Part shown: piece after piece, positions 10,598 to 45,296 of the stretch | Layout of the letters: each line of letters opens with the position of its first letter | Numbering within the stretch: the stretch's first letter is position 1 | Origin: Verrucomicrobiota bacterium | Lineage (GTDB): Bacteria > Verrucomicrobiota > Verrucomicrobiia > Limisphaerales > MWDV01 | DNA length: 64,000 nucleotides | Assembly (NCBI GenBank): GCA_035411585.1 | Contig: DAONTI010000010.1 | Location: 47,370 to 111,369, forward strand | Direction: 5' to 3' | Notes under the pieces: model-generated | What the model was told of the DNA's origin: nothing | Database searches by the model: none | What the model saw: only the letters and a program-made list of their open reading frames with translations | Translations under genes and position numbers: made by a program

Positions 10598-11530
10598 CTA
10601 TTGGCTCCGTTGCCGCCGCCACCAGAGTAATCCGCCCAGCATCGAAAGCCCGAACAAGAAACCGGACGCCGGCTCGGGTACCGGAGCAACCGAGGCAAAG
10701 GAGGTGCCGATCCGGATTTCATCAAAATCGGTGGAGTACCGCCCCCTGACGCCCACTTGATCCCAGATCGAGTATTGCATCGTTCCTGAGAAGACCGGAG
10801 TGGACAGCGCGCTTTCATCGGTCAGATCGAGGGGATTCAGCCAGACGGAAACTCCGGTCTGCCCATCCACAGCGTCGGGAAACTCCAGTTTCATCACGAA
10901 AAAGGTCTGCAAATCCATCTTGGCGTCGTCGCCAAAATCCGCCGAAGTCACGGGCGCATTTTGCATTTGAATCCCCCAGTTGCCGGTGGTGTTCGGGGTT
11001 ACTTTCCCCAGCCAAAGCGGGTTGCTGGTCCCGCTGTTTTCCAACTCAACAAAGGCGTACCGCGGGCTGGCCGTGGCAATTCCATCGGATTGAGCTAGGA
11101 AACTGACCCAAATGGTGCTGCCCAGTTCACCAATGGGCTCCGACAACAGCCGCTGGTCCCAGGAATTATTGCCGAACGCCGTCCGAATTTGACTGCCTGA
11201 CGTTTGCAAGGTATGGCCAAATCCATCCGTGTACACCAGTGGCGCCACCCGACTACCCGCCGGATAATCGTCGGGATAAACCGGAATACCCGCGTTCTTG
11301 GACCCCCGTGAAGTCCACGCCCCGGCCCAACCGATGCCGCCCGCCAAACCGGCAATGCCTTCGCCCAGCACACTGTCGGAGGCGTACCATTGCACCCGGC
11401 CGTAATCGAACGGTTCATACGCGATCAACTCGGCCGCCGCGCGATCCACCGCCAAGGCCAGGCAGGGCAGGACGGCGAGTAAGAGGCGATACTTGCAGAA
11501 GTAATTTGTGTGGATTTTCATGAGTATCAA
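10598..11530 (-). CDS. PEP-CTERM sorting-domain protein with LamG-like jelly-roll N-domain
   Basis: Has a signal peptide. The N-domain begins LIAYEPFDY..GIGWAGAWT and ends VWLNPLDL...DFDEIRIGTSFASV. The C-terminus VPEPASGFLFGLSMLGGLLWWRRQRSQ has the three parts of a PEP-CTERM signal: PEP motif, TM helix and basic tail. Confidence 0.85.
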   Translation of the reverse strand: MILMKIHTNYFCKYRLLLAVLPCLALAVDRAAAELIAYEPFDYGRVQWYASDSVLGEGIAGLAGGIGWAGAWTSRGSKNAGIPVYPDDYPAGSRVAPLVYTDGFGHTLQTSGSQIRTAFGNNSWDQRLLSEPIGELGSTIWVSFLAQSDGIATASPRYAFVELENSGTSNPLWLGKVTPNTTGNWGIQMQNAPVTSADFGDDAKMDLQTFFVMKLEFPDAVDGQTGVSVWLNPLDLTDESALSTPVFSGTMQYSIWDQVGVRGRYSTDFDEIRIGTSFASVAPVPEPASGFLFGLSMLGGLLWWRRQRSQ

Positions 11531-11844
11531 CTGGGTAAATTCATTAAAACCTTGCCCACCCTAAGCGCATAATTTTTCGGCGTCAAGACAGTCAGTTTGA
11601 AAATTGAAAAATTTTTCCGAATTGTCACCTGCCCACCCTCGTCCCATCATTTGGTTGAAATGAGATGTGACCACTCGCCGCATGCCGGCTCTTTTGCTTT
11701 TCATCGTTGCCCCACTTCGGTTAACTGCTTGGAAATTTTGCGCGGGCGCATCGTCGGCAATCCGTGGCGCCGGGGGTACCGGAATCATTGAAGGCGGTCG
11801 GCAGTTTCAAAAGCGTTTTGCGGTTTAAGGAACTCAAGGATTGT

Positions 11845-12828
11845 ATGAAGCATTACTCGAAAATTTTCCTAATGACCGGCACTGTCGTGCTGGTCTTGGC
11901 CGCGAATGCGGTGGCGGTCGCTGAAACCACGAAACCGTTCCAGGGCATTACCCTGCGGCATGAAAGACTGACCGAGCCCCGGCAGATTGATGTCCACGTG
12001 GTCCGGGTGGATCTCCGGGCGCCGGGAATCCGGTTCAAGGTCACAGAATCATCACGGCCCGGGGAGAGCCGGCTGACCACGGTGCGGGATTCGCTCGCCA
12101 AGGAAAAAGCGCGGGACGCCGCCGCCTGCCTGGCGGTCAACGGCGCCTTCTTCACCTTCAGCCCCAAGACCGGCATCTACCCGCCCCACTGTTACATTGA
12201 GGGGATTGCCGCCAGCGAAGGCGAACTCTATTCGGCCTGGGAAGACATCGCCATTCCGTTCCCGGCTTTCAACCTTTCCAAAGACAATGTTCCCTCCATC
12301 CTCGACAAGCAGGAGGTGATTCCCAATGACCGCTACCGCTCCGTGCTCACCGATATGGAGCATCGCCAGACGTGGGAGGTGGCCTTGGGGCTTCTGGGCC
12401 GGTATTTGAGCAATTATCCGGAACTCCCCGATGACGATATTTCCGGGCACTTTTACAATGCCATCAGTGGATCGCACCGCCTTGTGCGCTCCGGCACCAA
12501 CACCATGGACATAACTTCCTATCCCAAGAACGACGAACCGCATCCCCGGACCGGGATCGGCTACGGCCCCGGGTTTCTCGTCATTGTGGTGGTGGACGGG
12601 CGTAATCCCGGCCACAGCCTCGGTGTCACCTGTCCCGAACTGGCTGATCTTCTGATCAAAGAGGGAGTGGTTGAAGCCGTGAATTGGGACGGGGGCGGCT
12701 CCACCACGCTGGCAATTGCCGATCCGATACCCCGGCTGCTCAATCGCCCCGTCGGCGTCAAAGGCCGGCCCGGCACCGAACGCCCGGTAGGCGCGAGTTT
12801 GATCATTTTTGCCAATCCGGGTAATTAA
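11845..12828 (+). CDS. phosphodiester glycosidase family protein (NAGPA/DUF2233-like)
   Basis: Signal peptide MKHYSKIFLMTGTVVLVLAANAVA (ATG at 11845; the ORF is open from 11764). Motifs AVNGAFF, AISGSHRLVRSG and PRTGIGYGPGFLVIVVVDGRNPGHSLGVTCPELADLLIKEGVVEAVNWDGGGSTTLAI are typical of the NAGPA 'uncovering enzyme' domain family. Confidence 0.85.
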   Translation: MKHYSKIFLMTGTVVLVLAANAVAVAETTKPFQGITLRHERLTEPRQIDVHVVRVDLRAPGIRFKVTESSRPGESRLTTVRDSLAKEKARDAAACLAVNGAFFTFSPKTGIYPPHCYIEGIAASEGELYSAWEDIAIPFPAFNLSKDNVPSILDKQEVIPNDRYRSVLTDMEHRQTWEVALGLLGRYLSNYPELPDDDISGHFYNAISGSHRLVRSGTNTMDITSYPKNDEPHPRTGIGYGPGFLVIVVVDGRNPGHSLGVTCPELADLLIKEGVVEAVNWDGGGSTTLAIADPIPRLLNRPVGVKGRPGTERPVGASLIIFANPGN

Positions 12829-12942
12829 GTCGGACACGAGCCCACCATGACGCGTCAGCACGCATCGCCACCGGCCCGTAGTTTTCGTCGCCCCACCCGC
12901 TCTTTGATGGGGCCGTTCACGCGATGGGGACCGCGGTTTTGG

Positions 12943-13752
12943 ATGGGTGACATAAAATCAATTTTCCGCGCCGCGTTTCTGCTCGGGGCGGCCCTCATTT
13001 TGTCCGGATGCGCATCCCCATCGGCCAAAGTCGGGCAGGTGCGGGTGTTGTGTTACAACATTCGTCACGGGCGCGGGATGGACGGCCGCATTGATCTGGA
13101 GCGCACCGCCCGGGTGATCAAGTCGGTGCAACCGGATTTGGTGGCCGTTTTGGAAATTGACCGGGCCACGCGCCGCTCCGCAGGTGTAGATCAAGTGGCG
13201 GAGCTCGCGCGGTTGACGGGGATGACATACTATTTCGGCAAGTGCCGGGATTATCAGGGCGGCGAGTTTGGGCAGGCGGTGCTTTCGAAATGGCCGTTGA
13301 CCAATGAAGTGTTGCCCTTGCCGGGGAGCCCCGAATTCGGCGCCCGGATTTTGCAAATCAACCGTGTGCAGCCGCCTTCTGGAATTCCCGATTTGATGTT
13401 CCTGAGCACCCACCTCAGTCACGGCGTCAGTCCCGCCGATCGCCTCGCCCAAATTGAATTCATCAATCAATGGTTGCAAACCCAGAGTCCGGACGCCCTG
13501 GCCATCCTCACCGGCGACTTCAACGCAACCCCGGAATCGGAGGAATTGCAACGTCTGTTGCCTCACTGGCGGGATGTCGGGGCGGTGAACTCCGCCGCGA
13601 CGTTCAAGGCTGATCAGCCGAGGATTCGCATTGATTACATCTTCGCCCGTCCCGCAAGCCGGTGGCGGATCATCCAGACGTACGTGCTGGACGATGCCGT
13701 AACTTCGGATCACCGGCCTGTCTTCGCGGTGCTGAAAGCGACGGCCCAATGA
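12943..13752 (+). CDS. endonuclease/exonuclease/phosphatase (EEP) family lipoprotein
   Basis: Lipobox in MGDIKSIFRAAFLLGAALILSGC; the ORF is also open from the ATG at 12847. EEP motifs present: VLCYNIRHG, DLVAVLEID, TGDFNATPES, IDYIFAR, SDHRPV. Confidence 0.85.
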   Translation: MGDIKSIFRAAFLLGAALILSGCASPSAKVGQVRVLCYNIRHGRGMDGRIDLERTARVIKSVQPDLVAVLEIDRATRRSAGVDQVAELARLTGMTYYFGKCRDYQGGEFGQAVLSKWPLTNEVLPLPGSPEFGARILQINRVQPPSGIPDLMFLSTHLSHGVSPADRLAQIEFINQWLQTQSPDALAILTGDFNATPESEELQRLLPHWRDVGAVNSAATFKADQPRIRIDYIFARPASRWRIIQTYVLDDAVTSDHRPVFAVLKATAQ

Positions 13753-15728
13753 ATCCCACTTTCAGGTCCGGTCCGATCATCAGGGCCCGGTTCATCTTGT
13801 TGTGTTTGGTGCTGGCCGCCATCCCGGGTCTGGCGCAGTTGCTGATTTATGAAGACTTCAATTACGAGCGCCGGCAGGGGTTTGTCAGCGCCGCCATTCC
13901 GGGCGAGGGCATAGATGGATTAAATGGCGGGGTGGGTTTCGCCGGTCCGTGGACCACCACCGGAAATTACTTTTCCGGCATCCCAGTTGGTCCCGGAGAT
14001 TACGGTGCGGGGGTCACTTACGGAAATCCGCTTGGCGCGCGCCTGGCCCCGCTGGCCTACAGTGACGGATTCGGCAACCATCTGGTCACCCGGGGACACC
14101 AACTGCGCACGGCCTTCGGCAACCATTCGCGCGAAGTCCGGCGCCTGGCGTCCCCTGTGGGCGGATGCGGAAACACGCTGTGGATGAGTTTTCTGGCGCA
14201 AGCCCACGGGCTGGCCGGCACCTCACGCTACGCCTTCGTGGAACTCGCCAACGCCGACGGCAACGCCATCCGTCTCGGCAACGTCACCCCCGTCTCCTCC
14301 GGGCAATGGGGAGTGCAGGTGTTGAACAGTGGCGGTGGTGCGCCATCGGCCGACTTGGGATTGCCCATGGACGTCCCGACCTTGTTCCTGGCCCGGTTGG
14401 CATATCCGCCAACGCCTGGCGATCCCGCCCGGCTCGCGGTTTGGCTCAACCCGCACAATCTGGTTCATGAAAAGGCGCTGCCCGCGCCGATCATTGAATG
14501 GGATTTTGCACCGGTCGCCTTTGACCAGTTGAGCGTGGCTGGGCGTTACTCCACAGATTTCGATGAGTTGCGTCTCGGCACCCGCTTTGACGCAGTGACG
14601 CCAACGCAACCCGCGCCGGTCGGCGATGCCTGCCTGACCACCGAACGCGACGGTCAGAATCTCCGGCTCAGTTGGCCCGAAGCCTACACCGATGGGTTGG
14701 TGCCACAGGTCTCCCTCGATTTGCAGGAATGGCAGCCGCTGCCCTTGCCGCTAGAGCGCACCAACGGCCAATGGCGGCTGACCGTGCCTCTCGATGGCCA
14801 GCAGCGGTTTTTCCGATTGCATTATCCCGCGCCGGGACCGTCGCGACCGCGGCTCGCCACCCTCGAAGCCACCGGCTGGCAGCCGCAGGAGGTCCGCGCC
14901 GGACTCGTGTATTACGAACGGCAGTTGACCAATTTGTTGGGCAGTCCACAGGTGGTGAACGTGCTGGCGCTCGACCTCGACCACCCCGGCTTGCGTCTCG
15001 AACTGACCGCGATGGATGTCTGGGGGCTTTCCCGCGTTACCGTGCCGGTGCTGGCCGAACATGCCGGCGCGGTCGCGGCTATCAACGGCGGGTTCGGCAC
15101 CGCCCGCACGTTTTCCGAAGTGGGTTACGGCATCATGATTTTTCGCGGGATTGTCTGGCCTTTCGTCAACGATCCCGATTTCCACGAACTCTACGAAGCG
15201 CATGGGCGCAATGCCGTGGGAATTGACGCCGCCGGGGAGTGGCACTTTGCCTCGCGCGGCGCGGAAGGTTGGGAAGTGGGCGCGCGTTGGCCGACGAACT
15301 GGCCGGGCATGGTGCAGGCCATGGCGGGCGGCAGCCAATTGGTGCGGGCCGGTGCGGTCCATCCGTTGGTGGTGCCGGCCACGACGCGCGGGGCGTACCT
15401 CTCGCACAGTGGTTTGCATGACTTGACCTTCAATCGAAATCCGCGTACCGCCATCGGCATCACCAATCATCGGATCGCGGTGCTGGTGACGGTGGCCGGC
15501 CGTTTTCCGGGCATTGCGGAGGGCATGACCTTGCAGGAGATGGCGGAATTGATGTTGTTCATGGGCTGCCGCGACGCCCTCGAACTCGACGGTGGGGGAT
15601 CCTCCACCATGTGGATCGGCCAGCCGCCTTTCGACGGAGTGGTGAATTACCCGACTGACAACGGCCAGTTTGATCACGATGGCCTGCGTTCCCTGCGCTT
15701 GGCCGTCTTAATCATGGAGACGGATTAA
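13749..15728 (+). CDS. fusion protein: LamG-like N-domain (paralog of 10598..11530) + internal FFRL beta-sandwich + phosphodiester glycosidase domain (paralog of 11845..12828)
   Basis: The start ATG at 13749 overlaps the EEP stop (ATGA). Signal peptide MNPTFRSGPIIRARFILLCLVLAAIPGLAQ. The N-domain LIYEDFNYE..GVGFAGPWT..AVWLNPHNL..DFDELRLGTRFDAV aligns along its length with the PEP-CTERM protein. The middle contains ..LRLSWPEAY..QQRFFRLHYP. The C-terminal part has AINGGFG, MAGGSQLVRAG and PRTAIGITNHRIAVLVTVAGR..ALELDGGGSSTMWI. Confidence 0.85.
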   Translation: MNPTFRSGPIIRARFILLCLVLAAIPGLAQLLIYEDFNYERRQGFVSAAIPGEGIDGLNGGVGFAGPWTTTGNYFSGIPVGPGDYGAGVTYGNPLGARLAPLAYSDGFGNHLVTRGHQLRTAFGNHSREVRRLASPVGGCGNTLWMSFLAQAHGLAGTSRYAFVELANADGNAIRLGNVTPVSSGQWGVQVLNSGGGAPSADLGLPMDVPTLFLARLAYPPTPGDPARLAVWLNPHNLVHEKALPAPIIEWDFAPVAFDQLSVAGRYSTDFDELRLGTRFDAVTPTQPAPVGDACLTTERDGQNLRLSWPEAYTDGLVPQVSLDLQEWQPLPLPLERTNGQWRLTVPLDGQQRFFRLHYPAPGPSRPRLATLEATGWQPQEVRAGLVYYERQLTNLLGSPQVVNVLALDLDHPGLRLELTAMDVWGLSRVTVPVLAEHAGAVAAINGGFGTARTFSEVGYGIMIFRGIVWPFVNDPDFHELYEAHGRNAVGIDAAGEWHFASRGAEGWEVGARWPTNWPGMVQAMAGGSQLVRAGAVHPLVVPATTRGAYLSHSGLHDLTFNRNPRTAIGITNHRIAVLVTVAGRFPGIAEGMTLQEMAELMLFMGCRDALELDGGGSSTMWIGQPPFDGVVNYPTDNGQFDHDGLRSLRLAVLIMETD

Positions 15729-36061: not shown

Positions 36062-37422
36062 TACCGCCCCCCCGCTCCCTCACTCTCGCGGAAGCCCTGC
36101 AATCCGCCCGTGAAACCCGCGCCCTGGAAATTGGGTCGGGAATCCTCGAGCAAACCCTGCGTCTGTATCGCGACCACTTCGGCGACCGCCCGGCGATGTT
36201 GGTGGCGGACGGCAACACCTACGCCGCCGCCGGACAACGGGTGGTCGAAGCCTTCCGCAAGGCGGGCCACCCGTTGCAGGATGCCTTCATCTTCCGGGCG
36301 CCCGATTTGTACGCGGAACATCGGTTCGTGACCGAACTGGAAGCCGCCTTGCAACCGCACCAGGCCATTCCCATCGCCGTGGGGAGCGGCACGATCAACG
36401 ACCTGACCAAGCTGGCGTCGCACCGCACCGGCCGTCCGTATCTGTGTGTGGCGAGCGCCGCTTCGATGGACGGATACACCGCGTTCGGCGCTTCGATCAC
36501 GTATCAAGGCGCGAAGCAAACCTTCCTGTGCCCGGCGCCGACTGCGGTGTTGGCGGACTTGGAGGTCATCTGCGCCGCACCGGGATTGATGAACGCGTGG
36601 GGTTACACTGATTTGCTCGCCAAAGTCACGGCGGGCGCTGATTGGATCGTGGCGGACGCGCTGGGCATTGAGCCGATTGACCCGCCGGCCTGGGCGATTG
36701 TGCAAGGCCGGTTGCGAGAAATGGTGGCGGATCCCGCCGGGGTGGCGGCGCGCAATCCCGAGGCGGTGGGACGGTTGGTGGAAGGGTTGATGCTCGGCGG
36801 TTTTGGCATGCAATCCTCCCGCTCCAGCCGGCCGGCTTCCGGCGCGGAACATCAGTTCAGTCATTTGTGGGACATGCAGCATCACACCCACAACGGAAAG
36901 ACCCCTTCCCACGGCTTCAAAGTCGGCATCGGCACGCTGGCGGTGGCGGCGCTGTATGAGTATCTGTTGGCGCAACCGTTGGACCAACTGGACGCGGCCG
37001 CGTGCGGCCGGCAATGGCCCGATGCGGAAACGTGGTGCCAACGCGCGCGGGAATGGCTGGGCGAGGGGGAACTGGCCGCCGGCGCGGCGAAGGAATTGCG
37101 CGCCAAGCACAGTCCGCCGGAGGCGCTCCAGGCGCAGATGGAACAGTTGCGTTCGCTCTGGCCGGAGTTGCGCGAGCAGTTGCGCGCCCAATTGATGCCG
37201 TTGGCGACGCTGCGGGAGATGTTGCGCACCGTGGGCGCGCCCACCGCGCCGGAGGAGATCGGCATCACCCGGGAACGATTGCGGCGAAGCTACTGGCAGG
37301 CGTATTGCATCCGGCGCCGGTTCACGGCGCTGGATCTGGCGGTCCGCACCGGATTGCTGGAGGCTGCGTTGGACCACATTTTTGGTCCCGCCGGCGTCTG
37401 GCCGATTGACGCGCGCGGTTAA
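36058..37422 (+). CDS. iron-containing alcohol dehydrogenase superfamily protein, sn-glycerol-1-phosphate dehydrogenase-like (AraM/EgsA clade)
   Basis: ATG 36058 overlaps the GDPD stop (ATGA). VGSGTINDLTK (nucleotide-binding glycine motif), SMDGY and SGAEHQFSHLWDM resemble the G1PDH/Fe-ADH_2 metal-site motifs as I remember them. At 454 aa it is longer than classical EgsA. Confidence 0.6.
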   Translation: MIPPPRSLTLAEALQSARETRALEIGSGILEQTLRLYRDHFGDRPAMLVADGNTYAAAGQRVVEAFRKAGHPLQDAFIFRAPDLYAEHRFVTELEAALQPHQAIPIAVGSGTINDLTKLASHRTGRPYLCVASAASMDGYTAFGASITYQGAKQTFLCPAPTAVLADLEVICAAPGLMNAWGYTDLLAKVTAGADWIVADALGIEPIDPPAWAIVQGRLREMVADPAGVAARNPEAVGRLVEGLMLGGFGMQSSRSSRPASGAEHQFSHLWDMQHHTHNGKTPSHGFKVGIGTLAVAALYEYLLAQPLDQLDAAACGRQWPDAETWCQRAREWLGEGELAAGAAKELRAKHSPPEALQAQMEQLRSLWPELREQLRAQLMPLATLREMLRTVGAPTAPEEIGITRERLRRSYWQAYCIRRRFTALDLAVRTGLLEAALDHIFGPAGVWPIDARG

Positions 37423-37451: not shown

Positions 37452-38819
37452 TTGCCGAGGTGTTTTTTGTTTAAGTCATTTCTCCAATTCTTCCTGACGG
37501 GGCCGGATGCGACCCCATTGACCGACACGGCGGAGATCCAGCGGCGCTACCGGCGCGGCCGGATTTCGGTGTTTTTATCCATCACCCTCGGCTACGCCAT
37601 GTATTATGTCGTCCGCCAGGGCTTCGCGGTGGTCAAAAAACCGCTGCTCGAGGCGGGGATCTTCGACGCCTTGCAGATCGGCAAGATCGGTTCGGTGTTT
37701 TTCCTCACCTACATGATCGGGAAGTGCGTCAACGGCTTTCTCGCCGACCGGTTGAACATCAAACGGTTTCTGGCGTTGGGGTTGCTGGCCTCCTCGACGT
37801 TGCTGGTGGTCTTGGGGTTCTGTTCCAGCTTCTATCTGTTTGCCGTGTTATGGGGGCTGTGCGGCTGGTTTCAAACCTTTGGCGCGGCACCGTGCATCGT
37901 GTCCCTGAACCAATGGTTCTCGAACAAGGAACGGGGCACTTTGTACGGCATCTGGTTTTCCGCGCACAACATCGGCACCGGCCTGACCTACATCATCACG
38001 GCCTATATCGTCGGCGCCTTTGGCTGGCAGATGGGGTTCTTCGCGCCGGGATTGCTGGGGATTACCGCGGCGGTGTTTCTGTATTTGTTCATGTATGACC
38101 GGCCCCAGGTGTACGGGTTGCCGCCGATCGCGGTGTATTCCGGCGAACAAACGCACGCCGAACACCAGGCCAAGGAAAAATCCGTGCTCCGGGCGCAATG
38201 GGCGGTCATCATCCGGCCGGCCGTCTGGATTCTAGGGTTGTCTTCCGCCGCCTGTTACATCACCCGCTATGCGTTCGAATCCTGGGGGGTTGTGTTCCTG
38301 ACCGAGGCCAAGGGATACACCTTGACCAAGGCCAGCGCCATCATCTCCATCTCCCAGTTCGCCGGCATTGCCGGGGCCATCACCTGCGGCTGGATCTCGG
38401 ATAAATTTTTTCAGCACCGCCGCAACGTGCCCTGTCTGTTATTCGGCATTTTCTTCCTGCTGTCCACGGCGACATTCGTCTATGTGCCGGCCGGTTATCC
38501 GTGGAGCGATTATGTGAGCATGGTGTTCTTTGGCTACACCGTGTACGCGTTGGTGACTTATCTGGGCGGGTTGATGGCGGTGGACATCTGTTCCAAGAAA
38601 GCCACCGGCGCCGCCATGGGGGTCATTGGTTTGTTTAGCTACGCCGGCGCGTCGCTGCAGGAAGGCGTGGGCGGTTATTTATTAAACAGCCACAAAATCA
38701 TCGGTCCGGATGGCCAAATTCTTTACGATTTCACCGCCGCCGGTCATTTTTGGGTGATCGCCTCGGCCTTTGCTCTGTTGCTTCCCTTGTTGGTCTGGAA
38801 CGCCAAACCTGAAGATTAA
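37452..38819 (+). CDS. MFS organophosphate:Pi antiporter (GlpT/UhpC family), copy 1
   Basis: EIQRRYRRGRISVFLSITLGYAMYYVVRQGF..., LADRLNIKRF, GWFQTFGAAPC and WFSNKERGT align with GlpT/UhpC landmarks. The only in-frame start upstream of the conserved N-terminus is non-ATG (TTG 37452), so the start is uncertain. Confidence 0.8.
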   Translation: MPRCFLFKSFLQFFLTGPDATPLTDTAEIQRRYRRGRISVFLSITLGYAMYYVVRQGFAVVKKPLLEAGIFDALQIGKIGSVFFLTYMIGKCVNGFLADRLNIKRFLALGLLASSTLLVVLGFCSSFYLFAVLWGLCGWFQTFGAAPCIVSLNQWFSNKERGTLYGIWFSAHNIGTGLTYIITAYIVGAFGWQMGFFAPGLLGITAAVFLYLFMYDRPQVYGLPPIAVYSGEQTHAEHQAKEKSVLRAQWAVIIRPAVWILGLSSAACYITRYAFESWGVVFLTEAKGYTLTKASAIISISQFAGIAGAITCGWISDKFFQHRRNVPCLLFGIFFLLSTATFVYVPAGYPWSDYVSMVFFGYTVYALVTYLGGLMAVDICSKKATGAAMGVIGLFSYAGASLQEGVGGYLLNSHKIIGPDGQILYDFTAAGHFWVIASAFALLLPLLVWNAKPED

Positions 38820-38843: not shown

Positions 38844-40223
38844 TTGAATCACATGACGCATTCGCCCGGTTCCGCTCCCGCCCCCGCCCCCCGTTTTCCC
38901 TGGCCCTTTCGTGTCTTCGAACCGGCGCCGCCCGCCCCGGTGATGCTGACCGATCCGACCGAGATCAAGCAACACTACCGCCGCTGGCAACGCCGGGTGC
39001 TCATCGCTTCGATCATCGGCTATGCCATGTTCTATTTCGTGCGCAAGAACCTCAGTATTGCGATGCCGGTGATGGAGAAGAGCCTGGGCATTACCAAGAC
39101 CGATCTGGGGTTGTTTCTCACGCTGCACGGGTTGCTCTATGGGCTGTCCAAGTTCGGCAATGGTTTTCTGGGCGACCGCTGCAATGCGCGCACGTTCATG
39201 GCGTTTGGCCTGGCGCTCTCGGCCGTCGTGAACATCTTTTTCGGATTGAGTTCCGCCGTGTTGACCCTCGGGTTGTTGTGGATGTTCAACGGCTTGGTGC
39301 AGGGCATCGGGTTTCCGCCCTGCGCCCGGTTGATGACCCACTGGTTTTCCCCCAAGGAACTGGCCACCAATTTTTCCATCTGGAACACGTCGCATTCCAT
39401 CGGAGCGGCGTTGGTGGTGGTGCTGTGCGGGTATCTGGTGAGCACGTGGGGGGATTGGCGGCTTTGTTTCTTCGTGCCCGCCGGCCTGGCCATTCTCTGT
39501 TCCATTTACCTGCTCTTTGCGTTGCCGGATACCCCGCCCTCTGTGGGGCTGCCGGAAGTGGAGGGCACCGCGCAACCGGAAGCCGGGACGAAAGGGTTTT
39601 CCACCGCGCTCCTCAAACAGGCGTTCACCAACAAATACATTTGGTTTCTCTGCCTGGCGAATTTCTTTGTCTATACCGTGCGGTATGGCGTCTTTGACTG
39701 GGGCCCGACGATGCTCACGGAAATGAAGGGGGTCAAACTCACCCACGCCGGCTGGATGGTGTTCGCCTTCGAGGGCGCCGGGGTGGTGGGCATGTTGATC
39801 AGCGGCTGGTTGACCGACCGGATTTTCGGCGGACGCGGCGCGCGGGTGTGTTTGATTTCCATGTGTCTGGCCGGCATTTCCATGCTCCTGTTCTGGAAGC
39901 TGCCGGGACAATCCATCTGGCTGGGCACGCTCCTGTTGTGCGCGGCGGGATTTTTCATTTATGGCCCGCAGGCGTTGGTGGGGACGGTGGTCGCCAATCT
40001 GGCCACCAAACAAGTGGCGGCCACCGCCATTGGTTTCACCGGGGTCTTCGCCTACGCCAGCACGTTGATCTCCGGTTGGGGACTGGGCGCGCTGGTGCAA
40101 CATTACGGTTGGGAAGCCGGGTTGGCCGGACTGACCGGGATGGCGGCCATCGGGATGATCTTGTTTGCCTTTGCCTGGCCGGCGCAGGCGCACGGTTATG
40201 GCGAAAACCATTCCGCGAAATGA
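38844..40223 (+). CDS. glpT: MFS glycerol-3-phosphate:Pi antiporter (GlpT-like), copy 2
   Basis: IIGYAMFYFVRKNLSIAMP, LGDRCNARTF, GLVQGIGFPPCARLMTHWFSPKE, FVYTVRYGVFDWGPT and GFTGVFAY match E. coli GlpT landmarks closely from memory. An alternative start is at 38943 (MLTDPTEIK). Confidence 0.8.
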   Translation: MNHMTHSPGSAPAPAPRFPWPFRVFEPAPPAPVMLTDPTEIKQHYRRWQRRVLIASIIGYAMFYFVRKNLSIAMPVMEKSLGITKTDLGLFLTLHGLLYGLSKFGNGFLGDRCNARTFMAFGLALSAVVNIFFGLSSAVLTLGLLWMFNGLVQGIGFPPCARLMTHWFSPKELATNFSIWNTSHSIGAALVVVLCGYLVSTWGDWRLCFFVPAGLAILCSIYLLFALPDTPPSVGLPEVEGTAQPEAGTKGFSTALLKQAFTNKYIWFLCLANFFVYTVRYGVFDWGPTMLTEMKGVKLTHAGWMVFAFEGAGVVGMLISGWLTDRIFGGRGARVCLISMCLAGISMLLFWKLPGQSIWLGTLLLCAAGFFIYGPQALVGTVVANLATKQVAATAIGFTGVFAYASTLISGWGLGALVQHYGWEAGLAGLTGMAAIGMILFAFAWPAQAHGYGENHSAK

Positions 40224-40270
40224 CACACGACCGCGCATGCTGTTCCCAGCAAACCTGAGGATGACGAACC

Positions 40271-40726
40271 ATGCGAATTGCCATTGATTGTGACGAGGCG
40301 GGATTGCCGCTCAAACCGGTGCTCGCGGATCATTTGCGCGCCCAGGGCGTGGCGGTGACGGATTTGAATTATCAGCAGGATCATCCGGTGGATTATCCGG
40401 ATGTCGGATATCACTTGGCCCGGCGGGTGGCGGCGGGGGAATTTGACCGGGGCATCCTGATTTGCGGCACCGGTCTGGGCATGGCGATGATTGCCAACAA
40501 AGTGCCGGGCGTCTGGGCGGGCACCTGTCACGACACCTTTTCCGCCGAGCGACTCAAGAAAAGCAACGATGCCAACGTGCTGACGCTGGGGGCGCGTGTG
40601 ATTGGGCCAGAGCTGGCCAAAACCATCGTCACCGCCTGGGTGCAATCCGAATTTGCCGGCGGTGGGTCAACGGCCAAAGTCCAGCGTCTGCGTGAACTGG
40701 AACGGACCGAATGCGGGCGGGCGTGA
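40271..40726 (+). CDS. rpiB: RpiB/LacA/LacB family sugar-phosphate isomerase
   Basis: MRIAIDCDEAG..., GILICGTGLGMAMIANKVPGVWAG and DANVLTLGARVIG are the RpiB family signatures. 151 aa. Confidence 0.85.
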   Translation: MRIAIDCDEAGLPLKPVLADHLRAQGVAVTDLNYQQDHPVDYPDVGYHLARRVAAGEFDRGILICGTGLGMAMIANKVPGVWAGTCHDTFSAERLKKSNDANVLTLGARVIGPELAKTIVTAWVQSEFAGGGSTAKVQRLRELERTECGRA

Positions 40727-40772
40727 AGCGCGGTGCCAACGCGCCTGCCTTTCCGGCCCCGGCCTTTTACCG

Positions 40773-41759
40773 ATGACAGCATTTCGCGGCTCCATTTCCG
40801 ACGCGACGCCGAAACAGCATGTCTTGGCGTCGGCGTTGCCGGGGACGGAGAAGCGGGGTCGCCCCAAGTTGCCGCATTCGCGTGGGCAAAATTGGCTTGG
40901 CGGGGTAATCGGTGGGATCCTGGGGTTGATCATCTTGAGCCCGGCAATCGGCTGGGCGCATGGGGAATTATTGATCCGCATTGACGAAGTCACGCAACGT
41001 ATCGTCGCCGCCACAAACACCCCGGAACGATTGGCCCCGCTTTACGTGGAACGCGGCGATCTGTATCGCGAAGATGAGAATTGGGAGGAGGCGGAAGCCG
41101 ATTTCAACCGGGCGGCGGCGTTGGCGCCGCATTGGGCCGCTGTGGATTTTTTCCGGGGAAAACTGCGCGCCGCCACGGACCAACTGGAGGCCGCCCGGGC
41201 GTTGTTCGACAAAGTGTTGGCCCGCGACGCCAATGACGGCGCCGCGCGGGTGGAACGGGCGCGGGTGCTCGTCCGGCTGAAGGAACTCCCGTTGGCCGAG
41301 GCGGATTTTCAACGGGGCGCCACCCTGTTGGCGGAGCCGGAACCGGAAGTATTCGTGGAATGGGCGCAGGTGTTGATAACGGAGGGCCGCACCAACGATG
41401 CCTTGCGCGCGCTGGATATGGGCATCCAAAAGCTGGGCGTGTTGCCGCCGTTGCAAACCCTGGCGCTGGATTTGGAGGTGGGTCGCCGTAATTACCCCCA
41501 GGCGTTGAAACGCTTGGAAACGCTCCATGCGCGGGCCATGCGCAAGGAAGGTTGGCAGGCGCGGCGGGGCGATATTCTCCGGGCCATGGGGCGGGACGCG
41601 GAAGCGAAGACATCGTATGCCGCCGCTTTGGTTACGATCAAAGCGCTGCCGCCGCGCATCCAACAAGGCCCGGCCATGACTGATTTGCGCGCGCGCGTTC
41701 AAGCGGCGTTGGCGGAATTGGGCGAACCGCCCGCCCACAATGCCCCGGCTCCGCCGTGA
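40773..41759 (+). CDS. membrane-anchored tetratricopeptide (TPR) repeat protein
   Basis: One TM helix (WLGGVIGGILGLIILSPAIGWA) followed by TPR-like helices (LYVERGDLYREDENWEEAEADFNRAAALAP..., ARALFDKVLARDANDGAARVERARVLVRL...). The ORF-track start at 40602 overlaps rpiB, so ATG 40773 was chosen. Confidence 0.65.
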   Translation: MTAFRGSISDATPKQHVLASALPGTEKRGRPKLPHSRGQNWLGGVIGGILGLIILSPAIGWAHGELLIRIDEVTQRIVAATNTPERLAPLYVERGDLYREDENWEEAEADFNRAAALAPHWAAVDFFRGKLRAATDQLEAARALFDKVLARDANDGAARVERARVLVRLKELPLAEADFQRGATLLAEPEPEVFVEWAQVLITEGRTNDALRALDMGIQKLGVLPPLQTLALDLEVGRRNYPQALKRLETLHARAMRKEGWQARRGDILRAMGRDAEAKTSYAAALVTIKALPPRIQQGPAMTDLRARVQAALAELGEPPAHNAPAPP

Positions 41760-44800: not shown

Positions 44801-45296
44801 CCGCATCACCTATCGGGCGCGCGATGGCCAGGCCTTCAGCGGCATAGCCACGTTGAACCTGAATGTCATCGCGCCGCCGGACGCCAATGGCAACGGCTTG
44901 CCGGACGCCTGGGAATTGTATTACGGCATCACCGATCCCGAGGCTGATGACGATGACGACGGCCTCAGTAATCGTCAGGAGTATTGGGCCCATACCAATC
45001 CCACGAATGCCGCTTCCGCTTTCCGGATTCTTAACGCCGCGTGGCAGCCCAGCGGGCACTTTGCGTTGACCTGGGCCTCCGTGGGCGGCGTGCGGTATCG
45101 GGTGCAATACACCGATGCGACTCATCCGGCCGGTGTGGCCGGGACCTTTACGGACCTGCAACGGGGTATTGAGCTCGAGATGGACGCGGGCCCGGCGGGG
45201 GTGGAGTCCACGCAAACTTTTGCCGATGATTTCACCCACACCGGCGGCCCGCCCGCGCGTGGCGCCCGCTATTATCGCGTGCGGATTGCTCCGTGA
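41889..45296 (+). CDS. giant secreted metallophosphoesterase, paralog of 29205..32288 (with one extra Calx-beta-like repeat)
   Basis: 1135 aa. It has the same N-domain and one Calx-beta-like repeat (GVTVTPTNNLVTRGDGGTATFAV...). MPE motifs: IVALPDTQ, QLGDIV, VGNHEQ, VVTHH, LGGHITG. The acidic segment reads NGLPDAWELYYGITDPEADDDDDGLSNRQEYWAHTNP. It ends ARYYRVRIAP. By eye, well over half of aligned residues are identical to the 29205 protein. Confidence 0.9.
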   Translation: MKCVSSLEQTAAGRAAGFLFFRPGRSRGWLAAMIAAALSFSPQAVAEPVHHGVAAGRLVVSQVPGLDDNTNAVVTLAQSINNFQIGSYNRGDYAVRIGVGMLAAEDSARGVLMASVAENGRNNFGTNGYPTCSMEGNSAGALRISTALGGSGGEYNVNVAGAWFPYDRYLAGWARNANAINGGTNDLLTASPGIVLGTHFRGVASGRSVVDLRSFGVDARQDGVLLVTHGKDEGNFALSQVNPVNGTWNVFVRDNAQATYSKYEQDPVAFVFIPKTNAALISGRFNGDGSIDLFSGVSPRFSVTNIGTGRWLLRMRGYTPAEGVLIISAEGGGSLNGDNVVSYEITPDGEAWEIQSRDTPGMGLQTPVGAAGQPEAVASFVFIPAPTPGVTVTPTNNLVTRGDGGTATFAVVLHSSPATNVHIQLTSSDPALGRPTPATLTFRSTDWHLPQTVTVTGGDALTPGAVPYHILLSPAASGDAAYRGLKPEDVAVVYLPAPVAVITPPPGALNISPSPMLTVVATNPAPEALTVTFYGREVTETFPGPDFCIVALPDTQVYVAEKRGAKKEMFIAQTEWIVTNRIARNIAYVAQLGDIVNDGDIYQGQPNLTQWRNATNAMYRLENPVRTLLTHGIPYGVAVGNHEQQPRGDPTGTTYFYNLFFGLPHFSGRPYHAGHYGTNNNNHFDFFSASGLDFVVLYFEYDQGANPAVLAWGSEVLRTNAHRRAIVVTHHVGNSQTPSSFSLQGSAIYNALKGHTNLFLMLGGHITGQGSRQDIHNGNIVRSLVADYQGWANGGNGFMRIMEFSPSNNLVVVQTYSPWTKEYLTDEHSEFWFDYPMQPAGTGPAGTAFVPLGTNTNVTPGSRTSLAWPSRRPNQNYEWFVTVTDAAQNTWTSRLWRFTTTVTNTPPVLTNRSLTLQGDTPTRLLFQAMDVNQDPLTYHVIVAPTRGLMQDFDPVTGSFLYVPARGFRGMDRITYRARDGQAFSGIATLNLNVIAPPDANGNGLPDAWELYYGITDPEADDDDDGLSNRQEYWAHTNPTNAASAFRILNAAWQPSGHFALTWASVGGVRYRVQYTDATHPAGVAGTFTDLQRGIELEMDAGPAGVESTQTFADDFTHTGGPPARGARYYRVRIAP

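Follow-up and report, generated by a model that had tools for sequence, protein, structure and literature searches.

The 64-kb window analyzed here, the whole stretch of DNA studied from an uncultured Verrucomicrobium, carries many genes for phosphoester-cleaving and glycerol phosphate proteins between positions 10598 and 45296, which raises the question of whether these genes constitute one functional system and what that system would process. A sequence-only reading had proposed that they constitute a single phosphoglycan- or teichoic acid–scavenging regulon, an interpretation that our analyses partly supported. Specifically, the 35-kb stretch splits into three units, A, B, and C, plus unrelated genes, and is not one unit. 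On balance, we favor the view that units B and C form a glp regulon–like catabolic system for glycerophospho compounds that handles both enantiomers of glycerol phosphate.

Three Units Interspersed with Unrelated Genes

The families on which the regulon proposal was based are all present, namely two NAGPA proteins, EEP, GDPD, GlpD, a G1PDH-like protein, two GlpT proteins, RpiB, and two giant metallophosphoesterases (MPEs) (Table 1). However, they do not form the one dense block that was described, as unrelated genes are interspersed among them. Because paralogs and operon members do not represent independent events, these eleven "phospho" genes reduce to three independent units. The stretch also encodes a pseudopilin-like protein, a SorC regulator, and a tetratricopeptide-type (TPR) protein, and the description of neighboring products as lectin-like held in part, with Laminin_G_3, DNRLRE, and Big_9 domains and a PEP-CTERM motif being found.

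Unit A comprises an operon for exported proteins, NAGPA–EEP–NAGPA, together with the gene of a PEP-CTERM paralog. The EEP gene starts 18 bp past the upstream NAGPA gene, and the second NAGPA gene overlaps the EEP stop codon. The product of this second gene, NAGPA688, has a C-terminal NAGPA domain and an N-terminal domain that is common to the PEP-CTERM protein (47% identity over 279 aa). Unit B encodes three paralogous giant secreted proteins, two of which contain a divergent MPE module, and unit C is a tight eight-gene operon with the order GlpD–SorC–GDPD–G1PDH-like–GlpT–GlpT–RpiB–TPR.

Table 1. Features of the 35-kb stretch, numbered from the first nucleotide of the window
Feature	Position	Strand	Supporting evidence
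Unit A: PEP-CTERM-anchored secreted protein, 310 aa	10598..11530	-	PF07589 (PEP-CTERM) E=7.8e-06
Unit A: NAGPA-family phosphodiester glycosidase, exported, 354 aa ORF	11764..12828	+	PF09992 E=8.9e-21; signal peptide in translation
Unit A: EEP (endonuclease/exonuclease/phosphatase) family lipoprotein	12847..13752	+	PF03372 E=1.8e-22; lipobox LILSGC
Unit A: two-domain exported NAGPA protein	13749..15728	+	PF09992 E=4.5e-26, residues 469-668 of long ORF; signal peptide
Metal-uptake unit, unrelated to phospho genes	15891-19844		
PfkB kinase and permease, unrelated to phospho genes	20071-22224		
URO-D-like gene, unrelated to phospho genes	22390-23616		
Unit B: N_methyl/DUF1559 pseudopilin-like protein	23803..24657	+	PF07963 E=5.8e-09
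Unit B: 1390 aa secreted giant; N-module, three Calx-beta-like repeats, two DNRLRE-type domains	24715..28887	+	NF033679 (DNRLRE) E=1.1e-11
Unit B: MPE giant 1, secreted, 999-1033 aa	29289..32288	+	Signal peptide; motifs PDSQ, GD, GNHD, VTH, GGH
Unit C: GlpD-like FAD-dependent glycerol-3-phosphate dehydrogenase	32406..33905	+	PF01266 (DAO) 4.8e-52; PF16901 (DAO_C) 1.3e-10
Unit C: SorC/DeoR(Bsu)-type transcriptional regulator, sugar-phosphate-binding domain	33945..35054	+	PF04198 E=6.8e-61
Unit C: GDPD, exported (lipoprotein signal) glycerophosphodiester phosphodiesterase	35126..36061	+	PF03009 E=1.1e-21; N-terminus ...GAALLLYAC
Unit C: G1PDH-like NAD(P) polyol-phosphate dehydrogenase, 454 aa, AraM/EgsA relative	36058..37422	+	PF13685 (Fe-ADH_2) 3.9e-30
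Unit C: GlpT-type organophosphate:phosphate antiporter, paralog a	37467..38819	+	E. coli GlpT 1pw4 5.2e-63
Unit C: GlpT-type organophosphate:phosphate antiporter, paralog b	38853..40223	+	E. coli GlpT 1pw4 6.2e-79
Unit C: RpiB/LacAB-family sugar-phosphate isomerase	40271..40726	+	PF02502 1.5e-49; NF004051 (RpiB) 166 bits (cut-off 135)
Unit C: membrane-anchored TPR protein, last operon gene	40773..41759	+	TPR_2 1.5e-11
Unit B: MPE giant 2, secreted, 1103-1135 aa	41985..45296	+	49-62% identity to 1033 aa giant; GNHE and related motifs

Gene Content of Unit C

The genes of unit C, from GlpD to TPR, lie on a single strand with intergenic spacing of −4 to 71 bp. The best solved match of the GlpD protein is the G3P dehydrogenase 3da1 (E=1.2e-85), with GlpO (2rgh) and E. 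coli GlpD (2qcu, 5e-62) also matched, and its score against the NCBIfam GlpD models, 320 bits, is just below the equivalog cut-off of 360. The GDPD protein matches the PDB GDPDs 1zcc and 2pz0 (∼6e-16), with alignment of the HRG...ENT...E.D...HD motifs. For the G1PDH-like protein, the best solved matches are G1PDHs (9h4x, 1.1e-50; 4rgq, 3.3e-28), and glycerol dehydrogenases match at 1e-10 or weaker. Its residues D185, H265/H269, and H285 are invariant and align to the Asp/His/His metal-site region of the solved G1PDHs. The C-terminal region differs from that of the archaeal enzymes, and the score against the G1PDH model NF002022 is 155 bits, below the equivalog cut-off of 413. The two GlpT paralogs share 31% identity, and both conserve the equivalents of R45, H165, and R269; the paralog a type is confined to a close clade, and the paralog b type is a near-universal neighbor of the G1PDH-like gene. 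A homolog of the TPR protein lies between the giants in four loci. Export signals are found on GDPD (lipoprotein) and on the giants (signal peptides), and none is found on GlpD, G1PDH, or RpiB, in agreement with the earlier proposal that cleavage takes place outside the cytoplasm.

The Giant Secreted Proteins of Unit B

The pseudopilin-like gene is the first member of a conserved triad, DUF1559–1390-like giant–MPE giant, which recurs in seven loci. Over its N-terminal 500 aa, the 1390 aa giant shares 50% identity with the 1135 aa giant; no catalytic domain was detected in the former, and the MPE motifs are absent. MPE giant 1, whose gene ends 117 bp upstream of the GlpD gene, consists of a signal peptide, an N-module (∼aa 50 to 392), the divergent MPE module (∼aa 425 to 745), a Big_9 domain, and a C-terminal domain. 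MPE giant 2 is its paralog, with one additional Calx-beta-like repeat. A terminator-like hairpin (41917-41950) is located just upstream of the gene-caller start of MPE giant 2, and this hairpin and one 3′ of the 1390 aa giant gene suggest separate transcripts.

Neither MPE giant matched Pfam Metallophos, even at E≤1, or any sequence among solved structures. However, homologs ∼50% identical to the MPE module carry PF00149 and are named metallophosphoesterase, and an AlphaFold (AF2) model (pLDDT 92.7) gave fold matches to purple acid phosphatases, GpdQ, acid sphingomyelinase, and Rv0805. On these two grounds the MPE fold is assigned with confidence, and the proteins were rightly called giant metallophosphoesterases despite the missing Pfam match. 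The model places the module closest to phosphomono- and diesterases, including GpdQ from Enterobacter aerogenes and acid sphingomyelinase, with which it shares a calcineurin-like alpha/beta sandwich (predicted with high confidence) and the GD, GNH[DE], H, and GH motifs. Unlike these enzymes, to which it is 11 to 15% identical (TM ∼0.5 to 0.6), the module resides within secreted proteins of 1000 to 1135 aa that also contain the N-module, Calx-beta-like, Big_9, and C-terminal domains. Moreover, its first motif is D-x-Q instead of D-x-H, and the final GH-x-H motif lacks the second His; thus, activity is not assured.

The N-module is a previously unannotated region of ∼340 aa with a family of 512 representatives. 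It is fused to this MPE module, in either order, in 21 of 110 long N-module proteins, and its other catalytic partners among the 40 scanned were only GDPD, PF04185 phospholipase C/acid phosphatase, and PAP-type Metallophos. Among those scanned, the N-module is therefore fused elsewhere only to phosphoesterase domains.

Recurrence of Unit C and Its Link to Unit B

The core of unit C, comprising the G1PDH-like protein, a GlpT-type antiporter, and a HAD-IIA phosphatase, often with an exported GDPD, GlpD, and a repressor, recurs at 80 species-level loci across four phyla, Verrucomicrobiota, Planctomycetota, Bacteroidota, and Acidobacteriota. The recurrence of this core and the tight spacing of the operon support the import-and-oxidation half of the sequence-only reading. 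Neighbors of the G1PDH-like gene are GlpT-type MFS (52/80), HAD-IIA (50/80), SorC (32/80), GDPD (28/80), and GlpD (24/80); as many of the contigs are short, these counts are minimum values. SorC adjoins the G1PDH-like gene in 24 of 40 Verrucomicrobiota and 7 of 13 Planctomycetota loci, and a DeoR-type regulator takes its place in 8 of 25 Bacteroidota loci. The NagD-type HAD-IIA phosphatase, a module member in most other genomes, is absent from the 64-kb window.

By comparative genomics, units B and C occur together well beyond what chance would give. Ten N-module/MPE loci of the related clade were informative (≥6 kb of downstream sequence), and in eight of them SorC, HAD-IIA, GlpD, GDPD, G1PDH, or MFS genes lie directly downstream, in varying order. 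An independent instance is a Bacteroidales locus in which DeoR–SusC–SusD–MPE genes are divergent from GlpD–GDPD–G1PDH–MFS–HAD genes. These rearranged and independent arrangements support the functional link between the giants and the operon that had been suggested. The link of the MPE module is strong only in one Verrucomicrobial clade and this Bacteroidales locus; glycerol phosphate neighbors were not found for more distant MPE homologs.

Alternative Interpretations

The proposal that the entire 35 kb is one co-regulated scavenging regulon, in which NAGPA would uncap sugar-1-phosphate diesters before cleavage by EEP, MPE, and GDPD, now appears improbable. In its favor, all three NAGPA/EEP proteins are exported and encoded within 20 kb of the operon, and few other homologs of them occur in ∼1.6 Mb of PVC loci, so that a rough estimate from NAGPA/EEP homolog density in ∼2 Mb of related loci gives a chance probability of 3 to 7% for this proximity; unlike that of B and C, it is not well above chance. 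In Bacteroidota, NAGPA is located directly upstream of, and divergent from, the G1PDH–GlpT–HAD module in two loci, NAGPA and an NPP phosphodiesterase lie 5 kb from the G1PDH module in another, and EEP is found inside a SusC/D locus adjoining the module in a fourth. These arrangements hint weakly at a wider theme, but the Bacteroidota co-occurrence (5/25) is not clearly above chance for common families. In addition, three EEP homologs of 43 to 52% identity are in unrelated contexts without NAGPA, and a search relaxed to E≤0.01 found neither NAGPA nor EEP within 10 kb of the MPE at 79 other loci or of the G1PDH gene at 53 PVC loci. The gap of eight kilobases between A and B contains unrelated genes on both strands and is not syntenic in relatives, and no operator motif common to the upstream regions of the units was found. 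In PVC relatives, unit A shows no conserved association with either of the other two units, and the inclusion of NAGPA–EEP–NAGPA in the system is not supported by these comparisons; these genes and the metal-uptake, kinase/permease, and URO-D-like genes are neighbors, not demonstrated members of the B and C system.

For units B and C, it is rather unlikely that the target is phosphorus and not carbon, with surface phosphoesterases and GDPD freeing phosphate or organophosphate under phosphorus limitation (Pho-type). A Mucilaginibacter SusC/D locus with a standalone MPE-module homolog, an NPP phosphodiesterase, a second MPE, and a PLC/acid phosphatase, under an ECF sigma/anti-sigma pair, does resemble organic phosphorus acquisition, the modeled MPE fold is nearest purple acid phosphatases, and B. 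subtilis glpQ is Pho regulated. However, GlpT-type carriers exchange organophosphate for Pi with little net phosphorus gain, the two dehydrogenases would feed DHAP into glycolysis, the repressor is of the sugar-phosphate type and not PhoB/PhoR, and a phosphate transporter and alkaline phosphatase are absent from the unit. A GlpT-type antiporter in place of an ABC importer, combined with a sugar-phosphate-type repressor, is the logic of E. coli glpTQ/glpD/glpR for carbon use. Known phosphorus-scavenging routes are ABC systems, such as Ugp or GpxB (PMC12718374). Still less probable is a biosynthetic role for the G1PDH-like enzyme, of the kind assumed for B. subtilis AraM, in which G1P made from DHAP would go into an ether-type lipid or a G1P-containing surface polymer and the adjacency to transporters would be incidental. 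In most genomes, the G1PDH-like gene is paired with a gene for a NagD-type phosphatase, whose HAD-IIA assignment was confirmed here; this pairing parallels araL–araM of the B. subtilis ara operon, where AraL is a HAD-IIA phosphatase. The best-characterized relatives, AraM and archaeal EgsA, which belong to the same Fe-ADH_2/G1PDH family, make G1P (PMC5059525, PMC13400652). However, the recurrent neighbors include neither a GGGPS/PcrB-like prenyltransferase nor any other gene of lipid synthesis, and the constant partners, an organophosphate importer, exported GDPD, GlpD, and a repressor, represent a catabolic architecture. The protein also differs from AraM and EgsA in its length (450 to 470 aa) and distinct C-terminal region. 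Its gene lies among import and catabolic genes instead of arabinose or lipid-synthesis genes, and the enzyme therefore probably acts in the oxidative direction. Finally, the GlpD-like FAD dehydrogenase, the SorC-type regulator, and RpiB of the operon belong to families that also occur in the erythritol pathway of Brucella, and these three proteins might act like EryB, EryD, and EryI on other polyol or sugar phosphates, such as erythritol-4-P or teichoic acid ribitol-5-P. RpiB matches the D-erythrulose-4-phosphate isomerase (EryI) model, but at 159 bits, below the cut-off of 240, whereas the generic RpiB model is passed. Further, GlpD best matches genuine G3P dehydrogenases and oxidases, EryC and TpiA2 homologs are absent, and RpiB accompanies the module in just 5 of 80 loci, all among the 40 from Verrucomicrobiota, leaving this explanation very doubtful.

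A Candidate Glycerol Phosphate Catabolic System

In the glp-like system that we favor for units B and C, the secreted or surface-held giants would bind a phosphodiester-containing substrate through the N-module and cleave it with the divergent binuclear MPE module. Candidate substrates are lipoteichoic acid (LTA), phosphatidylglycerol or cardiolipin head groups, and other glycerophospho-polymers of cell debris. The periplasmic GDPD, as its family, export signal, and position indicate, would release glycerol phosphate and an alcohol from glycerophosphodiesters. The two antiporters, judging by family and signature residues, would then import glycerol phosphate in exchange for phosphate. In the cytoplasm, GlpD would oxidize sn-glycerol-3-phosphate to DHAP, and the AraM/EgsA-like dehydrogenase would do the same with sn-glycerol-1-phosphate (G1P), the direction and stereochemistry of both reactions being suggested by context and the enzymes by family. 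The SorC-type repressor may render the operon substrate inducible. RpiB and the TPR protein have no part in these steps.

Among the closest known systems is the E. coli glp regulon (glpTQ, glpD, glpR), which likewise has a periplasmic GlpQ-like GDPD, a GlpT-type G3P:Pi antiporter (R45, H165, R269), FAD-dependent GlpD, and a sugar-phosphate-responsive repressor, and the same logic from diester to glycerol phosphate, import, and DHAP. Unlike the E. coli genes, those of unit C are all in one operon, with two divergent GlpT paralogs, an additional G1PDH homolog, and, in most genomes, the HAD-IIA phosphatase; GlpK and GlpF are absent, giant secreted phosphoesterases flank the operon, and the regulator is SorC-type, a GlpR-like DeoR-type regulator occurring only in the Bacteroidota versions. 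Unit B is similar in idea to the organic-phosphorus SusC/SusD loci of Bacteroidota (phosphoesterase-containing PULs), which capture and hydrolyze phosphorylated polymers at the surface and, in Mucilaginibacter and Bacteroidales, have MPE-module homologs as cargo enzymes. In contrast, the Verrucomicrobia lack SusC/D, and the MPE of unit B carries a putative binding module of its own within the same protein, with the DUF1559 pseudopilin-like gene ahead. Bacterial use of G1P is also the task of the GpxB/UgpB systems of marine bacteria, which are of the ABC type, contain substrate-binding proteins, and have been described only with respect to transport (PMC12718374). Unit C instead has an MFS antiporter module and a candidate for a dedicated dehydrogenase.

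G1P is a real growth substrate for bacteria, and no pathway for its catabolism has been described (PMC12718374). The LTA polymer, poly(sn-Gro-1-P), is resistant to GlpQ, which is specific for Gro3P (PMC7086022). The bacterial G1PDH that has been characterized, AraM, is taken to be a biosynthetic enzyme (PMC5059525, PMC13400652). Judged from its gene content, the unit C operon probably imports glycerol phosphates and oxidizes them with two dehydrogenases, one ordinary (GlpD) and the other "archaeal-type" (G1P).

Organization of the 10598-45296 interval

The region holds a conserved glp variant with an sn-glycerol-1-phosphate (G1P) dehydrogenase (G1PDH) homolog, coupled in this clade to a new type of modular surface phosphoesterase. 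The window (61% G+C) derives from an uncultured Verrucomicrobiota bacterium. Genes were picked by GC3 and annotated with Pfam and NCBIfam, and the 10598-45296 interval comprises three units plus unrelated genes, as listed below. Unit A is a gene for a PEP-CTERM protein with a NAGPA-EEP-NAGPA trio, unit B a DUF1559 pseudopilin-like gene with three secreted giant proteins, and unit C an eight-gene run from GlpD to a TPR protein with intergenic gaps of -4 to 71 bp. Two of the giants flank unit C, with 117 bp between the 1033 aa giant and GlpD and 225 bp between the TPR gene and the 1135 aa giant. The same genes also occur in JGI metagenome 3300009670 and ENA assembly ERZ764730, there on 116 kb contigs, and the closest genomes are Limisphaerales MAGs, with ~70% protein identity.

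Features in and around the 10598-45296 interval
Feature	Coordinates	Strand	Content
Left window edge	227-1342	-	IS110-family transposase fragment (161 aa, Transposase_20 only), DUF2726 protein
Secreted protein	4289-7078		[FY][FY]R[LVI] segment
Secreted protein	7742-9772		[FY][FY]R[LVI] segment
Pseudopilin-like gene	9812-10570	-	N_methyl/DUF1559
Unit A	10598-15728	-, then +	PEP-CTERM protein (-); NAGPA, EEP, NAGPA (+)
Secreted protein	13749-15728		second NAGPA protein of unit A; [FY][FY]R[LVI] segment in the middle
Metal-uptake unit	15891-19844	+	DUF2946-like 108 aa protein, 515 aa His-rich protein, ZnuA, ZnuB
PfkB kinase and permease		-	3' of the metal-uptake unit in map order
URO-D-like protein		+	after the PfkB kinase and permease in map order
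Pseudopilin-like gene (unit B)	23803-24657	+	N_methyl/DUF1559
1390 aa giant (unit B)	24715-28887	+	[FY][FY]R[LVI] segment
Hairpin	28925-28948	+	terminator-like
1033 aa giant (unit B)	29289-32288	+	[FY][FY]R[LVI] segment
Unit C	32406-41759	+	GlpD, SorC-type regulator, GDPD, G1PDH-like protein, two GlpT-type MFS, RpiB, TPR protein
Hairpin	41917-41950	+	terminator-like
1135 aa giant (unit B)	41985-45296	+	[FY][FY]R[LVI] segment
191 aa HAD	45346-45921	-	GmhB/PNK3P-like
Secreted protein	46161-48281		[FY][FY]R[LVI] segment
Pseudopilin-like gene	48435-49520	-	N_methyl/DUF1559
Glycan-degrading cluster	49583-61612	+	GH127, GH2, GtaA/DUF4964/DUF5127 protein, pectate-lyase-like protein, GH141, sulfatase
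Others beyond the interval			GH123, lectin-like and Big_9 secreted proteins

The sequence-only reading had proposed the whole 35 kb as a possible phosphoglycan or teichoic-acid scavenging regulon, whose products would bind, deglycosylate and cleave a polymer outside the cell, then import the fragments and oxidise them to DHAP. Every family that it named is present, but the 35 kb is not a demonstrated single regulon. Once paralogs and operon members are grouped into units A, B and C, the eleven "phospho" genes amount to about three independent placements, not eleven. No operator-like motif linking the units was found in their upstream regions, a search for a shared operator among 11 such regions returning chance-level 11-mers only, and Rfam and tRNA scans of the whole window gave no matches.

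Between 22 and 42 kb, scans for promoters and terminators gave about as many matches overall as chance predicts (7 versus 4.8 expected and 23 versus 23.3 expected), two hairpins alone being notable. One, CGGGACGGCGTCACGGCCGTCCCG, lies 38 bp past the 1390 aa giant. The other, a GC stem CGGCGGCTGGCCGGGCCGCCG followed by a T run GGTTTTTGTTTTT, separates the TPR gene from the gene-caller start of the 1135 aa giant; this start and the giant's transcript boundaries are provisional, and with translation from 41889 the hairpin would fall within the ORF. Given these hairpins, the giants may be transcribed partly on their own.

The metal-uptake unit, which separates unit A from the other units, shows no synteny in relatives. 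Its 515 aa protein has no Pfam match and combines an N-terminal coiled coil with a GGGHHHHGGHGD run, and no ZnuC ATPase gene occurs anywhere in the window. The glycan-degrading cluster is kept beside the 1135 aa giant in a near-identical strain (locus L089).

Unit C encodes GlpT-, GlpD- and GlpQ-type proteins with a G1PDH homolog

The two MFS paralogs of unit C are only 31% identical to each other. Both are of the 12-TM MFS type and matched E. coli GlpT (1pw4) end-to-end, MFS_b at 6.2e-79 (residues 24-442) and MFS_a at 5.2e-63 (residues 25-412). Equivalents of Arg45, His165 and Arg269 (E. coli numbering), the substrate-binding residues of GlpT, are kept in both, within VRKN/VRQG, (S/A)H(S/N)(I/V)G and (V/T)RY(G/A). 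At the equivalog level, which bears on glycerol-3-phosphate specificity, the TIGR00712 glpT model scored 316 and 252 bits for the two proteins against a cut-off of 633, and the UhpC and PgtP models scored similarly. Both proteins are assigned by sequence to the GlpT/organophosphate:phosphate antiporter (OPA) family.

The 454 aa G1PDH-like protein (36058-37422) matched PF13685 at 3.9e-30 (Fe-ADH_2/DHQS-like fold), and its matches in the PDB were G1PDHs at 1e-50 to 4e-23 and glycerol dehydrogenases at 5e-10 or weaker. D185, H265/H269, H285 and the NAD(P) loop G109-S-G-T-x-N-D115 are invariant in 13 sequences, and the conserved positions align with GMGD, SEHLFSH and LHGEQCG of the Methanocaldococcus (M.) jannaschii G1PDH; the His ligands of the putative Asp/His/His metal triad are assigned by analogy with the superfamily. 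Close homologs carry the NCBI name sn-glycerol-1-phosphate dehydrogenase. Residues ~305-375 form a helical segment that is missing from archaeal G1PDHs and gives spurious weak profile matches to release factor RF1 (E ~2e-4).

GlpD combines a DAO domain (PF01266, 4.8e-52) with the alpha-glycerophosphate oxidase C-terminal domain (PF16901, 1.3e-10), and its PDB matches (3da1, 1.2e-85; 2qcu, 5e-62) are sn-glycerol-3-phosphate (G3P) dehydrogenases and oxidases. Since both GlpD (NF008899, 319.7 bits, narrowly under the cut-off of 360) and the G1PDH-like protein (NF002022, 155 bits against 413) score below equivalog level, their substrate assignments are putative. The GDPD matched PF03009 across the whole TIM-barrel domain (1.1e-21), and its catalytic motifs SHRGAG, PENT, EADV and FHD align to 1zcc. 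Like periplasmic GlpQ, it appears to be exported, with a lipoprotein-type signal, read by eye, of a basic N-terminus, a hydrophobic stretch and the lipobox LLLYAC; no export signal was found in GlpD, the G1PDH-like protein or RpiB. A Brucella-type erythritol (Ery) pathway was rejected for this operon, as RpiB scored 158.8 bits against the EryI cut-off of 240 (NF051858) and the operon contains no kinase, EryC or TpiA2 homolog.

The G1PDH-centred gene set is conserved across phyla

The G1PDH-like family is large and at E<1e-10 comprises over 7000 database clusters. Loci of homologs >50% identical were collected with 10 kb flanks and one genome per species, giving 80 loci: 40 from Verrucomicrobiota, 13 from Planctomycetota and allies, 25 from Bacteroidota and 2 from Acidobacteriota. 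Locus ORFs were searched with the window proteins and neighbours were clustered; because many contigs are short, the resulting partner counts are lower bounds. A GlpT-type MFS of the MFS_b type was found in at least 52 of the 80 loci, followed by a NagD-type HAD-IIA phosphatase (at least 50; for example L074, 12688-13587, and L062, 12581-13474), the SorC regulator (at least 32), GDPD (at least 28) and GlpD (at least 24). A DeoR-type regulator takes the place of SorC in at least 8 of the 25 Bacteroidota loci, and RpiB accompanies the module in the closest clade only (5/80). The usual gene order is SorC-GDPD-G1PDH-MFS-HAD-GlpD. Cultured carriers include Singulisphaera acidiphila DSM 18658, Pedobacter spp., Sphingobacterium, Dysgonomonas massiliensis, Bacteroides caecimuris and Opitutaceae EW11.

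The G1PDH-centred gene set is thus a conserved module and a variant of the glp system. It follows the same logic as the E. coli glpTQ/glpD/glpR regulon, to which it adds the G1PDH homolog, and in most loci it has the same G1PDH/HAD-IIA pairing as B. subtilis araM/araL, araL being the HAD-IIA partner of araM. Solved relatives of the module's HAD-IIA protein include glycerol-3-phosphate phosphatases (4i9f, 7po7). The HAD-IIA phosphatase is absent from the window; the 191 aa HAD downstream of the last giant was tried as an AraL-like partner and rejected, as it is GmhB/PNK3P-like (DRDGT motif) and probably unrelated. Lipid-synthesis genes were not among the recurrent neighbours of the 80 loci.

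Two of the giants combine a divergent metallophosphoesterase module with an unannotated N-terminal domain

The 1033 aa and 1135 aa giants are paralogs (49-62% identity), and both contain the motifs PD(S/T)Q, GD, GNH(D/E), VTH and GGH. Direct searches of the two for a metallophosphoesterase (MPE) domain were negative, with no PF00149 match in Pfam even at E<=1 and none in NCBIfam, and phmmer of the 1033 aa giant against PDB sequences returned no match. The assignment was settled by homolog annotation and a structure model. Homologs ~50% identical to the 320 aa module are annotated with PF00149 and named metallophosphoesterase, and relatives in loci L074 and L049 match PF00149 at 2e-4 and 4e-6. 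An AlphaFold model from 36 sequences (pLDDT 92.7, pTM 0.91) was matched by Foldseek, with probability 1.00 and TM 0.5-0.6, to purple acid phosphatases, the glycerophosphodiesterase GpdQ, acid sphingomyelinase, Rv0805 and Mre11. The module is accordingly modelled as a calcineurin-like four-layer alpha/beta sandwich, and the earlier call of two giant metallophosphoesterases was right as to fold. Of the canonical ligand motifs DxH, GD, GNH[DE], H and GHxH, the module keeps GD, GNH[DE], H204 and GH239 without variation; the first motif reads D-x-Q, and the last one lacks its final His. Because of these two departures, the chemistry of the module may differ from that of textbook metallophosphoesterases.

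The 1390 aa giant lacks the MPE module and shares only its N-terminal ~340-390 aa with the others (50% identity). Pfam has no model for this N-terminal region of ~340 aa (the N-module). When 1.84 billion representatives were searched exhaustively with a profile, 512 members were returned, 211 of them below 1e-30, and the N-module lies mostly at the N-terminus of proteins of 1000-4000 aa. In 40 members scanned with Pfam, the only catalytic domains were GDPD in two, a PF04185 phospholipase C/acid phosphatase in one and PAP-type Metallophos in one, with no glycosidase, peptidase or lipase; of the 110 long members, 21 contain the divergent MPE module, placed before or after the N-module. We read the N-module as a domain that appears dedicated to phosphoesterases, and its function is probably substrate binding. 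Of its fold, modelled from three paralogs only and poorly (pLDDT 48), all-beta character alone can be stated. With 512 cluster representatives, the N-module is a defined, unannotated domain family. Since phosphoesterases, of four different types, are the sole catalytic domains detected beside it, it is a candidate for substrate targeting and merits structural study.

At least seven secreted proteins of the window, the giants included, contain an ~80 aa segment, terminal or internal, that has no Pfam match and finishes in [FY][FY]R[LVI] (for example, RYYRVRVVP, AFYRVVLP, RYFRLFW, ARFFRLQE and ETYYRIATQ); it may be a shared sorting or anchoring domain. Pseudopilin-like genes directly adjoin large secreted proteins three times in the window. 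The triad of DUF1559 gene, 1390-like giant and MPE giant is kept in seven other loci (L005, L091, L094, L095, L097, L108 and L160), which suggests that the DUF1559 gene serves secretion or display of the giants.

The giants are linked to the glycerol-phosphate module, unit A is an unproven neighbour

The MPE alignment, used to scan metagenomes, retrieved 80 loci; one, L089, is from a near-identical strain of the window's organism, and 14 encode N-module giants. Both scans together yielded 10 N-module/MPE loci whose downstream sequence extends for 6 kb or more, and in 8 of them glycerol-phosphate module genes lay directly downstream. The arrangements were HAD-IIA-GlpD-GDPD-G1PDH-MFS-MFS (L094, L095), HAD-IIA-GlpD-MFS (L097, L160), SorC only (L092, L093), SorC-G1PDH-RpiB (L005) and SorC-G1PDH-MFS-RpiB (L011). 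That the linkage persists despite rearranged gene orders argues for functional coupling of the giants to the module within this clade. An independent case is the Bacteroidales locus L074, where DeoR-SusC-SusD-MPE is divergent from GlpD-GDPD-G1PDH-MFS-HAD-MFS. Compared with the G1PDH family, the MPE family is much less common (at least 274 clusters at E<=1e-5 versus more than 7000 at E<=1e-10, the thresholds being different), and by a rough estimate MPE genes lie within 10 kb of a G1PDH gene, in independent lineages, far more often than chance would give. Around the more distant MPE homologs of the scan no glycerol-phosphate neighbours were found. In Mucilaginibacter, a homolog shares its SusC/D locus with an NPP phosphodiesterase, a second MPE and a PLC/acid phosphatase, which suggests that the family generally serves to hydrolyse organophosphates at the surface.

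Unit A fared differently. Its NAGPA domains are secure (PF09992, 75.3 and 92.5 bits against a gathering cut-off of 25), its NAGPA, EEP and NAGPA genes are separated by 18 bp and an overlap, all three products are exported, and the second NAGPA protein has an N-terminal domain that shares 47% identity with the divergent PEP-CTERM protein. EEP-centred comparative genomics recovered no conserved trio: EEP homologs (43-52% identity) lie in unrelated contexts, the nearest non-self one being only 49-52% identical. NAGPA/EEP homologs were absent, even at E<=0.01, from all 53 PVC G1PDH loci and all 79 other MPE loci, and the kinase, permease, URO-D-like and Znu genes are not beside the giants in relatives. 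Repeated co-localisation was found for the giants and the module and, in PVC relatives, not for NAGPA or EEP.

NAGPA occurs near the G1PDH module in 3 of the 25 Bacteroidota loci only. Two of these, from close relatives (L055, L081), have NAGPA directly divergent from G1PDH-MFS-HAD, L055 with a GDSL esterase as well; in the third, from Pedobacter sp. BS3 (L070, 2-3009), NAGPA lies 5 kb from the module and precedes an NPP-type phosphodiesterase and a T9SS-secreted protein. Beside the Bacteroides caecimuris module (L053, 14009-21323) lie SusC-SusD-EEP, a BACON protein and a DUF5689 protein. The L053 and L070 neighbourhoods are possible Bacteroidota counterparts of the proposed phosphodiester-polymer theme, and the Bacteroidota cases weakly favour the broader regulon. 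These families are common in Bacteroidota and 5 of 25 is not clearly above expectation, so we treat unit A as an unproven neighbour of units B and C. The sequence-only reading was largely correct as an observation and partly supported as an interpretation.

Discussion

In the best-supported scheme, surface phosphoesterases and the periplasmic GDPD would release glycerol phosphates, GlpT-type antiporters would import them, and GlpD and the G1PDH-like enzyme would turn the two enantiomers into DHAP, under control of the SorC repressor. We infer every functional step of it beyond family membership, export signals and gene linkage.

When phosphatidylglycerol is cleaved in PLC fashion, its head group is freed as Gro-1-P. 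Lipoteichoic acid consists of poly(sn-Gro-1-P) and resists the Gro3P-specific GlpQ (PMC7086022), and bacteria can grow on G1P as sole carbon source, only its uptake being described (PMC12718374). This lipoteichoic acid chemistry, head-group release and growth together make G1P a plausible natural substrate.

To our knowledge, bacterial G1P dehydrogenases have been discussed almost solely as biosynthetic oddities in the "lipid divide" debate. Bacterial G1PDH has been treated as biosynthetic (PMC5059525, PMC13400652), and G1P breakdown in bacteria was still called unexplored in 2025, with transport alone covered (PMC12718374). In the literature searched, no catabolic G1PDH operon is described, and no experiments on the module were found. 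We tentatively propose, while holding it somewhat less probable than the contrary, that the G1PDH-like gene marks a widespread, undescribed bacterial catabolic pathway for G1P, the "archaeal" enantiomer, which also forms the unit of lipoteichoic acid and arises from phosphatidylglycerol head groups. It would consist of an exported GDPD, a GlpT-type antiporter, an oxidative G1PDH, GlpD for G3P and a HAD-IIA phosphatase; the gene set occurs in Verrucomicrobiota, Planctomycetota, Bacteroidota (including gut Bacteroides) and Acidobacteriota, and in one Verrucomicrobial clade the pathway would be fed by giant surface enzymes with the new ~340 aa phosphoesterase-dedicated module.

An operon joining a G1PDH homolog to glpQ/glpT/glpD-type genes is a concrete, testable candidate for the missing step of G1P catabolism, and the interest of the module lies in offering such candidates in cultured species. 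Material containing G1P (lipoteichoic acid, phosphatidylglycerol head groups and archaeal lipids) is plentiful in sludge, soil, gut and sediments, so that such a pathway would matter for how carbon and phosphorus of cell envelopes are turned over.
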